This document shows positions 32,363 to 34,853 of a stretch of 64,000 nucleotides of DNA, piece after piece. The translations under genes and the position numbers were made by a program. The stretch is from Escherichia coli (GTDB lineage: Bacteria; Pseudomonadota; Gammaproteobacteria; Enterobacterales; Enterobacteriaceae). Location of the stretch: NCBI RefSeq assembly GCF_003334815.1, contig NZ_QOWO01000007.1. One strand, given 5' to 3'. Every line of letters starts with the position of its first letter. Position 1 is the stretch's first letter. The notes beneath the pieces were generated by a model. That model was not told where the DNA came from, ran no database searches, and worked only from the letters and a program-made list of their open reading frames with translations.

Positions 32363-32545
32363 TCATCGATCTTGTATCACTTTTTTGCCGGAAGTTGTTT
32401 GCATTTTATTAGTTGGATAGGGTTTGTGGATTTTTGCTGGCTGACGGGCAAATAAAGTTTGTTTAATGGTTTGCTTATCTGCCAGTTGATTAATCACATG
32501 GCGGGCTATCTGACCGCCAGCACCAAGAATCAGTACATTTTTCAT
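32363..32545 (-). pseudogene. ymjC: Truncated N-terminal remnant of an NAD(P)-binding Rossmann-fold protein (60 codons)
   Basis: ORF 32363..32545: MKNVLILGAGGQIARHV... glycine-rich dinucleotide-binding loop, then stops after 60 aa with no further domain. Confidence 0.6.
32377..32407. repeat. Copy A of a 31-bp element shared with the mppA upstream region
   Basis: TCACTTTTTTGCCGGAAGTTGTTTGCATTTT; 29 of 31 identical to 34823-34853; encodes the C-terminal tail of ymjC on the other strand. Confidence 0.6.
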
Positions 32546-32615
32546 GAAAATTATCCCAGATTATTGGCAGCAATATGCCAGTCCATATCACTATTGCGGA
32601 TTTGAATATGTTTCA

Positions 32616-33536
32616 TTACAGAGTTTCCTCAAAGAACGGAGCTAATACTGAAATTGCTTCAGCCACATAGGCTTTGCCGTCATAAAGATCCATATGGTTT
32701 GCGCCTTCAACAATGTGATAGCGTTTATCCTGGCTTGATGCTCGATCGTACAGGTCGTCACTCATCCATTTGCTCCCTGCCTGGCTGCCCGCCACAATCT
32801 GCGTCGGCTGAGTCAGGTACACTTCCGCCATATGGTAAGCATCATAGGTAATAATCTGGTTAAGGCTGCGCAAAGTAGCGTAACCCGGTGCTGTTGGATA
32901 CTGCGCGCGAGGGGTGTGGTAATACTCCCAGGCCTGACGCAGTTCTTCGTTCGGCGCATCGGACTCCTTCATTGGTGCCAGTGGCATAATGGCGTATTCT
33001 CCGCTGCTAATATCGCTGGTTCTGGCGTTTGAACCCGCTTCAACGTATGGCAGGGCATCAATAGATTTCACATTGTTTTCCCAACCATTACGGAATATCG
33101 AACCAATATTGACCGCACTAACGGTACCGATGGCCTTGATGCGGCGATCCTGAATTGCAGCATTGGCTGTATATCCTGCACCGGCACAAATTCCCATCGC
33201 ACCAATTCGGGTATTGTCGACATAAGAAAGCGTTGTCAGGTAATCAATCACGGCACTGATGTCTTCAGTACGAATGTATGGGTTTTCTAACTGACGCGGC
33301 TCGCCGCCACTTTCACCTTGATAAGATGCGTCATAAGCAATAGTGACAAATCCCTTTTCCGCCAGTTTTTTGGCATAGGTTCCGGCCGTTTGTTCTTTAA
33401 CGCCCCCACCTGGGTGAGATAACACAATTGCCTGATACTGACGGGTTTCATCAAATTTTGGAGGGAAATAGATCACTGCAGACAAAGAGATGGTTGGATT
33501 ATTGCTGTTAGTGAAGCTGACTTTATTATTCATCAT
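32616..33536 (-). CDS. ycjY: Alpha/beta hydrolase (dienelactone-hydrolase-like, Cys nucleophile), about 306 aa
   Basis: ORF 32616..33548; start placed at ATG 33536 (MMNNKVSF...) which has an AGGA Shine-Dalgarno; nucleophile elbow GICAG. Confidence 0.85.
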   Translation of the reverse strand: MMNNKVSFTNSNNPTISLSAVIYFPPKFDETRQYQAIVLSHPGGGVKEQTAGTYAKKLAEKGFVTIAYDASYQGESGGEPRQLENPYIRTEDISAVIDYLTTLSYVDNTRIGAMGICAGAGYTANAAIQDRRIKAIGTVSAVNIGSIFRNGWENNVKSIDALPYVEAGSNARTSDISSGEYAIMPLAPMKESDAPNEELRQAWEYYHTPRAQYPTAPGYATLRSLNQIITYDAYHMAEVYLTQPTQIVAGSQAGSKWMSDDLYDRASSQDKRYHIVEGANHMDLYDGKAYVAEAISVLAPFFEETL

Positions 33537-33606
33537 TCCGTTCCTCATGGAGTTGTCGGTTCGTTTTAACGGTTGGTGATATCACTATAGATATTGATCA
33601 TTAAGT

Positions 33607-33639
33607 TGATTAGACCCAAAATCATGATTAGACCTATCA
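33607..33639. promoter_or_regulatory. Tandem TGAT-N-ATCA dyads, candidate LysR-type (PgrR) operator in the ycjY/pgrR divergent spacer
   Basis: TGATTAGACCCAAAATCA immediately followed by TGATTAGACCTATCA; the 10-mer TGATTAGACC occurs twice 18 bp apart. Confidence 0.4.
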
Positions 33640-33673
33640 TTTAAATGATTAATAGATTGCATGGAGATACTGA

Positions 33674-34573
33674 ATGAAGCGTGAAGAAATCGCTGATCTG
33701 ATGGCGTTTGTCGTCGTTGCAGAGGAGCGTAGCTTCACTCGTGCAGCAGCCCGCCTGAGCATGGCGCAGTCAGCTTTAAGCCAGATAGTGCGTCGTATAG
33801 AAGAACGATTGGGATTGCGGCTTCTGACGCGAACCACGCGCAGCGTTGTTCCAACTGAAGCGGGCGAGCATCTTTTGTCTGTTCTTGGCCCTATGTTGCA
33901 TGACATAGATTCAGCCATGGCATCCCTGAGCGATCTGCAGAACCGCCCATCCGGGACAATACGTATTACTACTGTAGAACATGCAGCAAAAACGATATTG
34001 TTACCAGCAATGCGCACATTCCTGAAATCGCATCCTGAAATTGATATTCAGCTCACCATTGATTATGGTTTGACCGATGTCGTTTCTGAACGTTTTGATG
34101 CAGGCGTCCGTCTGGGTGGGGAGATGGATAAAGATATGATCGCCATTCGAATCGGGCCAGATATACCAATGGCTATTGTTGGCTCACCGGATTATTTTTC
34201 TCGCCGAAGTGTTCCAACGTCAGTGTCACAATTAATAGATCATCAGGCAATTAATTTGTATCTTCCCACATCGGGTACAGCAAATCGCTGGAGATTAATA
34301 CGCGGTGGACGTGAAGTTCGTGTTCGCATGGAAGGTCAGCTTTTACTGAATACGATAGACCTGATCATTGATGCTGCAATTGATGGGCATGGATTGGCGT
34401 ATCTACCTTATGATCAGGTTGAGCGGGCTATTAAAGAAAAAAAACTGATACGTGTTTTGGATAAATTCACACCAGATTTACCCGGTTATCACCTGTACTA
34501 TCCACACCGTCGACATGCTGGCTCGGCATTCTCATTATTTATAGATAGGCTGAAGTATAAAGGTGCTGTTTAG
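33674..34573 (+). CDS. pgrR: LysR-family regulator PgrR (YcjZ), 299 aa
   Basis: ORF 33674..34573; N-terminal LysR HTH; GGAG Shine-Dalgarno. Confidence 0.92.
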   Translation: MKREEIADLMAFVVVAEERSFTRAAARLSMAQSALSQIVRRIEERLGLRLLTRTTRSVVPTEAGEHLLSVLGPMLHDIDSAMASLSDLQNRPSGTIRITTVEHAAKTILLPAMRTFLKSHPEIDIQLTIDYGLTDVVSERFDAGVRLGGEMDKDMIAIRIGPDIPMAIVGSPDYFSRRSVPTSVSQLIDHQAINLYLPTSGTANRWRLIRGGREVRVRMEGQLLLNTIDLIIDAAIDGHGLAYLPYDQVERAIKEKKLIRVLDKFTPDLPGYHLYYPHRRHAGSAFSLFIDRLKYKGAV

Positions 34574-34822
34574 CACTACTTGCTGATACATTAATTTAAT
34601 TCTTCTCTTAACGTATTCTCAGTTCCTTTCAACGTTTTGGTCATTTTTTATTCTTCGTACAATGGCGACAGATGCTGATTATGATACCGAAAACGGGTTT
34701 GAACGTGCGAAGCCCGAACGTAGTGTTCGGAGTTCTATGTGCTTTACCGCATTTTGGAGACTATTATTTACACTAAATCTGATTTGATATATTGATACTT
34801 AAAACATTTGATGCTTCCTTTG

Positions 34823-34853
34823 TCACTTTTTTGATGGAAGTTGTTTGCATTTC
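34823..34853. repeat. Copy B of the 31-bp element, 57 bp upstream of the mppA ATG
   Basis: TCACTTTTTTGATGGAAGTTGTTTGCATTTC; contains a possible -35 TTGCAT with AATAAT 17 bp downstream. Confidence 0.6.

Follow-up and report, generated by a model that had tools for sequence, protein, structure and literature searches.

The region between mpaA and mppA in Escherichia coli holds a small gene island (ymjC′-ymjD′-ycjY-pgrR-queH′) that is bounded on both sides by copies of a 31-bp element in direct orientation. The element was analysed in a 64,000-nucleotide stretch of one E. coli contig (the window) and compared across complete genomes, phages and plasmids. The two copies are probably the attL and attR cores of an ancient, nearly wholly deleted lambda-like prophage that inserted between mpaA and mppA. 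The evidence comprises the duplication itself, genomes with an empty site, a single ancestral copy in related genera, homology to lambda attP at one end of the island and a set of nested deletions in the island.

A direct repeat specific to the mpaA–mppA locus

Copy A (positions 32377–32407) and copy B (34823–34853) both lie on the plus strand and are 2,446 bp apart. The positions of both copies are exactly those given in the original prediction, an earlier note on this stretch. The near-identity described there also holds, but the copies differ at three positions (12, 13 and 31) and are thus identical at 28 of 31 positions rather than 29. A repeat finder lengthens the pair to 42 nt with 83% identity. 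This extension was rejected because the flanks in register match only at chance level, with 26 of 95 identical positions upstream and 16 of 60 downstream. The same values confirm that the flanks lack similarity, as had been stated, and led us to reject the idea that they are diverged homologues of each other.

Copy A is located 96–126 bp upstream of the mpaA ATG (32281), close to the predicted 95–125 bp, and its left flank consists of ancestral mpaA-proximal intergenic DNA. Copy B lies just upstream of mppA, again as predicted, and ends 56 nt before the mppA ATG (34910); its right flank consists of ancestral mppA-proximal DNA. In the proposed prophage, copy A is read as the attL core (B-O-P′) and copy B as the attR core (P-O-B′).

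Within the window, no third match with three or fewer mismatches was found, and none is expected from 100 shuffles. A search with a 35-mer located the element in 5,419 of 5,426 complete E. coli genomes, with a minimum of one, a median of two and a maximum of four places per genome, and every case examined lies at the mpaA–mppA locus. With one or two places in a genome as the rule, the element is locus-specific, and a dispersed repeat resembling the repetitive extragenic palindromic (REP) or enterobacterial repetitive intergenic consensus (ERIC) sequences was rejected. The common dispersed repeat that the original prediction had named as the outcome that would undo it is therefore not what the genome-wide search returned. 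An Rfam search of positions 31500–35500 gave nothing above threshold.

Empty sites and the single-copy state

A synthetic empty site was constructed by joining positions 32000–32407 to positions 34854–35260 of the window and was searched in the 5,426 complete E. coli genomes. It gave one uninterrupted match in 173 of them. The segment between the copies is absent from about 170–190 of these genomes, and the ends of the island were found in 5,244. In two of the empty loci (L001 and L002), mpaA and mppA are adjacent and divergent, with 182 bp and one copy of the element between them. The direct repeat bounds the island in every island-bearing locus sampled.

The same single-copy organization is observed in other genera. 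In Citrobacter (L003–L005), Enterobacter (L006–L008) and Salmonella (L022), tyrR-tpx-ycjG-mpaA adjoins mppA across a spacer of 184–189 bp, which contains one copy of the element, and ymjC, ycjY and pgrR are missing. The element reads TCACTTTCTTGTCGGAAGTTAATTGCATTTC in the Citrobacter spacer and TCAACTTTCTGGCGGAAGATAATTGCATTCC in Salmonella and is followed by the nearly invariant GAAACAAATAATTAC. By this comparison between genera, the single-copy state of the element is the ancestral one.

The differences between the copies were traced at positions 12–13 and 31. The sequence is CC...C at the empty site of L002, CC...T in copy A and AT...C in copy B, a pattern that fits a single crossover between two similar sites. 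The CC...C sequence of L002 appears to be ancestral, although it could itself be a deletion product. Empty sites are of at least two kinds, AT...C (four exact and 10 near matches) and CC...C (exact in at least 60 cases, among them strains labelled ST648), and both are the junctions expected from recombination between copy A and copy B on either side of positions 12–13. L001, which is of the AT...C kind, shows no difference from the window over 1,806 bp of the left flank and one over 797 bp of the right flank, which shows a recent, clean loss of the island in a K-12-like background. Two other empty loci (L034 and L035) have 12–14 differences from island-bearing strains. The CC...C group (L002 and L036) forms a deeper lineage with at least 31 differences from all others and could represent either an old loss of the island or its ancestral absence.

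Homology to lambda attP beside copy B

A phage collection was searched with the junction expected of a circularised island as the query. The only matches were to the attP region of lambda-family phages (E = 1e-7). Window positions 34738–34843 align without gaps to lambda positions 27637–27742 with 75 of 106 identical nucleotides, and the local alignment score of 45 compares with 10.7 ± 1.7 (maximum of 21) for dinucleotide shuffles (z = 20). The homologous stretch consists of 85 bp of island DNA to the left of copy B and the first 21 bases of the element. The 85-bp part (34738–34822, plus strand) is read as a remnant of a lambda-like P arm, equivalent to the attP stretch from just past the P2 arm site to the core. 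On the lambda side, the match begins immediately after the ‘int 2’ feature (27615–27634) and reaches the annotated core (27724–27738).

The cores of lambda and of the element are in register (TCAGCTTTTTT-ATACT-AAGTTG in lambda versus TCA-CTTTTTT-GATGG-AAGTTG in the element). The core layout, TCA(G)CTTTTTT - 5 nt - AAGTTG, resembles, as a matter of similarity only, two inverted core-type Int sites around a 7-bp overlap. The matched lambda stretch holds the Xis, Fis and IHF-H2 sites. The lambda sequence TATCAATATATTA, the IHF H2 site, is intact in a complete form of the island (L017) and has one mismatch in the K-12 type. The orientation is also that of a lambda prophage, in which the P arm and the cargo of the accessory region are found beside copy B and attL (copy A) is found at the other end.

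Proposed origin of the repeat and points against it

Under a prophage origin, the ancestor of most E. coli would have carried mpaA and mppA back to back, with ∼182 bp of divergent promoter DNA between them. A temperate phage with a lambda-type attachment site would have integrated at the −35 region of the mppA promoter, into an overlapping sequence of ∼30 bp, and would have left a common core at both ends of the prophage. Copy A would then be attL, composed of the chromosomal left arm, the core and phage DNA, and copy B would be attR, composed of the phage P arm, the core and the chromosomal right arm with the −10 element of mppA and the gene. Nearly all of the prophage would have been deleted later, with survival of the cargo beside the P arm (the queH fragment, pgrR, ycjY, a second hydrolase gene and ymjC). 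Further deletions in some lineages would have reduced the second hydrolase gene to ymjD and, in the K-12 type, would also have removed 669 bp of ymjC up to copy A. At present, copy B would supply the mppA promoter with its −35 hexamer and upstream part, and copy A would be a relic. As direct repeats, the copies would be a substrate for clean loss of the island, which would have occurred in several lineages.

A number of observations weigh against this origin. None of the island forms contains an integrase gene, an excisionase gene or any other phage gene. The distal P arm is absent, with the lambda sites P1 and P2 (‘int 1’ and ‘int 2’) and H1, and the queH fragment lies upstream in its place. 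Beside copy A, the search for a P′ arm in the orientation of the core found none (z = −1.6). A junction of island right end, core and island left end, as predicted for attP, gave no match in viral and metagenome contigs and no contiguous match in phages, plasmids or the 5,426 E. coli genomes. A four-gene cassette equivalent to the island cargo (SDR, two hydrolases and LysR) is found with 79% identity on conjugative Klebsiella plasmids, with no phage context there. Moreover, positions 12–13 lie in the stretch that aligns with the 7-bp overlap of lambda; in most loci copy A carries CC there and copy B carries AT, whereas an efficient reaction of a cognate integrase leaves the overlap identical in attL and attR.

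The CC/AT difference would result if the phage had integrated at a non-identical overlap and the heteroduplex had then segregated. L019 has AT at positions 12–13 in both copies. Weak similarity to the lambda P′ arm was detected in the inverted orientation (49 nt; lambda 27762–27810 and L017 3703–3751 at the left end of the island; z = 5.1). This inverted stretch of L017 is located just outside the part that is common to the Klebsiella plasmids and is missing from the window. The core alone gave no match in viral contigs, no phage with the core was found in the phage collection, and none of the viral contigs searched was a prophage contig that included MppA.

Two extensions of the prophage origin were considered, and both seem unlikely. 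The first is that both cores are still usable and that the island could be excised by a lambda-family integrase and excisionase from a resident or infecting phage. The second, which is separate, is that the CC/AT difference is a segregated heteroduplex and a fossil of integration at a non-cognate site, with the CC...C and AT...C empty sites as the two excision products.

Possible insertion of the cassette without a phage

There is a small but appreciable chance that the cassette was inserted by a non-phage route. A circular plasmid-derived fragment that shared ∼30 bp with the locus could have entered through a single crossover, or a staggered break with subsequent fill-in could have duplicated 30 bp. 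The lambda-like stretch would then be unrelated passenger DNA or a chance resemblance. Such a route would suit the lack of phage genes in the island, the unconvincing P′ arm and the plasmid distribution of the cassette, which occurs on Rhizobium and Agrobacterium plasmids in addition to the conjugative Klebsiella plasmids. However, the homology with the Klebsiella plasmids ends 111 bp short of copy A on one side and at the pgrR stop codon on the other, and the DNA that adjoins the copies is therefore not cassette DNA. The attP homology, moreover, is not only strong but also contiguous and in register from the P arm into the core. The ∼30-bp duplication is far above the target duplications of insertion sequence (IS) elements and transposons, which are usually 2–14 bp, and neither terminal inverted repeats linking the island ends nor a transposase open reading frame was found. 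A target-site duplication by a transposon or IS element was rejected on these grounds.

The relatives of the cassette genes were also surveyed. The YcjY protein is 81–88% identical to homologues from Pluralibacter, Rhizobium, Agrobacterium, Sphingobium and Burkholderia, an unusually high identity across classes, which suggests that the LysR-hydrolase cassette has spread widely by horizontal transfer. In Escherichia albertii (L021; GCA_027567065.1, positions 1294–8294), pgrR-ycjY DNA that is 95.9% identical to the window over 2,055 bp (window 32616–34670) adjoins icd, a classic lambdoid attachment locus. It is surrounded by prophage remnants (NleG, a lysis-gene fragment and omptin) and a full-length queH, and its homology to the window stops exactly at the ycjY stop codon. 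QueH strongly matches a phage protein family, and PgrR matches another. The E. albertii setting and the QueH match speak for the prophage origin.

The element in the predicted mppA promoter

The right half of the element overlaps a predicted σ70 promoter of mppA (34845–34873, plus strand). The −35 hexamer TTGCAT (34845–34850), which corresponds to positions 23–28 of copy B, is separated by a 17-bp spacer from the −10 hexamer AATAAT (34868–34873). This arrangement had been pointed out in the original prediction. Salmonella, Citrobacter and Enterobacter all conserve the −35 hexamer and the −10 block GAAACAAATAATTAC, and from this conservation the element's right half is predicted to be the −35 hexamer of a conserved mppA promoter, a role that copy B would have kept; copy A would be an orphan duplicate of the same −35 region.

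The two copies differ in their constancy. TTGCAT is retained in copy B of all 17 island-bearing loci sampled. Copy A variants among E. coli include C26T, CC to AT and a 1-nt insertion, and in the same 17 loci the −35-like hexamer of copy A is TTGTAT in eight, with the AT variant and the 1-nt insertion in one locus each. Both copies vary in the T-run of their left half, as copy A of L025 has gained one base (TCACTTTATTTG) and copy B of L028 has lost one (TCACTTTCTG), which indicates that the left half is not strictly constrained in either copy.

These observations bear on the proposal, made in the original prediction, that the element is a binding site shared by the two neighbouring murein-peptide genes. 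In its fullest form, the 31-mer would be an operator of PgrR or another regulator that coordinates mpaA and mppA, with both copies kept by selection. In four genera, parts of the element other than the −35 hexamer (GGAAGTT and TCAC) are conserved as well, the ancestral element lies between two divergent murein-peptide genes, and each gene kept a full copy after the insertion. The proposal is nevertheless very unlikely. The insertion alone accounts for the duplication, and both copies derive from one ancestral sequence between the same two genes, so that the identity of the neighbours needs no regulatory explanation. The element is older than pgrR at the locus and is conserved in genera without pgrR there, and the variation of copy A and of the T-run of copy B is not that of two selected operators. 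The PgrR regulon includes ycjY-ymjDC-mpaA (PMC5934670). Genomic SELEX (systematic evolution of ligands by exponential enrichment) with PgrR lists the ycjY/ycjZ spacer and nothing at mppA or ymjC/mpaA, and hence no peak at either copy (PMC5934670). On balance, the two copies probably do not serve as a common regulator site. The left half of the element may once have held a shared operator, but the data do not require one.

Other promoter-like sequences were examined around copy A. The ancestral mpaA-proximal half of the intergenic region, as defined by alignment (32282–32376), contains GCAGTGTTGTGCAAA (32311–32325) and ATCAAAT (32337–32343), which lie outside the insertion and are invariant in E. 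coli, Citrobacter and Enterobacter. Both are candidates for an mpaA promoter or operator. A minus-strand TCCACA-16-TAAAAT sequence directed toward mpaA (32403–32430) runs across the junction of the K-12-type deletion and the end of copy A. As a promoter it is no better than chance (seven sites found versus 6.5 expected) and was rejected.

Island genes and nested deletions

In the window, the island cargo consists of two genes and three remnants. The LysR-type regulator gene pgrR (ycjZ; 33674–34573, plus strand) is followed by 97 bp that are common to E. albertii, a 75-bp internal fragment of queH and the P-arm remnant that begins at 34738. The queH fragment (34671–34745, plus strand), a deletion remnant, encodes residues 79–108 of epoxyqueuosine reductase. 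It is identical to E. albertii QueH at 21 of 30 residues (tblastn), has a 41-bp match to queH of L021 (blastn) and is annotated by PGAP in L018. On the minus strand, ycjY (32616–33548) encodes an α/β hydrolase, listed as an open reading frame of 310 amino acids and annotated as a protein of 306 amino acids. ymjD (32551–32616) is a 21-codon N-terminal remnant of a second α/β hydrolase gene, which is intact (310 amino acids) in other E. coli. The in-family part of the ymjC remnant (32408–32545) represents codons 1–46 of a 212-residue SDR/NmrA-like oxidoreductase.

Three forms of the island are nested in their extent. The complete form (L017, L018, L029 and L032) contains full-length ymjC (212 amino acids), the 310-residue second hydrolase, ycjY and pgrR, with the copies of the element ∼4.0 kb apart. 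In the second form (L015, L019, L020 and others), the copies are 3,111 bp apart and the second hydrolase is cut to the 21 codons of ymjD. The K-12-type form (the window and L027) has lost another 669 bp, which extend from just past copy A into ymjC. At the left end of the island, L017 (3665–3690) differs from L015 by an 18-bp indel with the palindrome GACTTA-GATG-TAAGTC, which is present in complete-cassette forms only and absent from the others.

Full-length ymjC is found in 2,901 complete genomes, and in those sampled both copies of the element are present at the same places, with 111–165 bp from copy A to the ymjC stop codon. Residues 1–46 of the YmjC remnant are 100% identical to those of the full-length protein. 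Residues 47–57 are encoded by copy A, and copy A together with its flank encodes residues 47–60, which agrees with the earlier suggestion that copy A supplies the out-of-family tail. The deletion junction lies at 32407/32408, and the lost DNA corresponds to L015 7126–7794. The K-12-type truncation of ymjC therefore arose later, through loss of 669 bp up to copy A.

The original prediction had rightly seen a recombination footprint in the repeat but had tied it to the truncation of ymjC. In favour of that reading, homology to ymjC in the K-12 type stops precisely where copy A begins on the island side. It is refuted, however, by the sampled full-length-ymjC genomes, which already hold both copies at the same positions, and the truncation is a later deletion with 0–1 nt of microhomology.

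The deletion stops 0–1 nt from the inner edge of copy A, a coincidence with a chance expectation of roughly 1–2%. Microhomology was rejected as the cause of this end point, given that 0–1 nt is shared and that a TTGC..TT resemblance is out of register. Immediately after the stop codon of full-length ymjC, a hairpin with a 12-bp stem is followed by UUUAUU (L015 7645–7675; −17.2 kcal/mol, z = −3.7). It is lost in the K-12-type deletion, and its removal may be the reason for readthrough from the ycjY promoter into mpaA in K-12.

Comparison with known attachment sites and prophages

The island shares with the lambda att sites a direct core repeat at both ends of the insert, a single core at the empty site, the core layout, ∼85 bp beside attR that are homologous to the core-proximal P arm, and the placement of the P arm and accessory-region cargo beside attR. 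In contrast to lambda, the island lacks int, xis, other phage genes, the distal P arm and a recognisable forward P′ arm. The shared core is ∼30 bp here but 15 bp in lambda. As bacterial site, the island occupies the mppA promoter and lambda the gal-bio spacer. The overlap-aligned stretch differs between the copies (GCCG versus GATG).

The cryptic prophages of K-12 (DLP12, e14, Rac, Qin and others) are likewise decayed lambdoid elements with accessory cargo beside the attachment site, cargo under host regulation and polymorphism among strains. The island, at 2.4 kb in the K-12 type and ∼4 kb at most, is far smaller and has no phage gene left. To our knowledge, and in the literature searched, the pgrR island is not listed as a prophage remnant.

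Phage integration at mppA has been described, in line with a prophage origin of the island. The mEpimmI temperate phages, which have a type III integrase, are reported to integrate at the initiation region of mppA, and E. coli LSU61 carries such a prophage (PMC11893012, 2025). The likeness to the island is one of reported location, attachment at the start of mppA, and these phages are described as non-lambdoid (PMC11893012). The same paper places attachment sites of phages ∼7 kb apart, at ydaM, at abgT and at the start of mppA (PMC11893012). The ydaM-abgT-mppA region would be a hot spot for prophage integration.

Implications for the PgrR island

A prophage scar explains why genes for a LysR regulator and hydrolases lie between two genes of peptidoglycan recycling, as they would be leftover cargo. 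PgrR owes its name as a regulator of peptidoglycan recycling to its repression of ycjY-ymjDC-mpaA. The simplest view of its control of mpaA is as a by-product of the insertion and the later deletions; about 3% of E. coli lack pgrR, and none of the loci examined in Salmonella, Citrobacter and Enterobacter showed it. With the prophage origin, the E. coli map would gain a prophage scar that is not yet listed and a lambda-like attB, in a region that is already home to several phage attachment sites. It would also present the locus as a natural decay series, which leads from the complete cassette through loss of the second hydrolase and then of ymjC to clean loss of the island.

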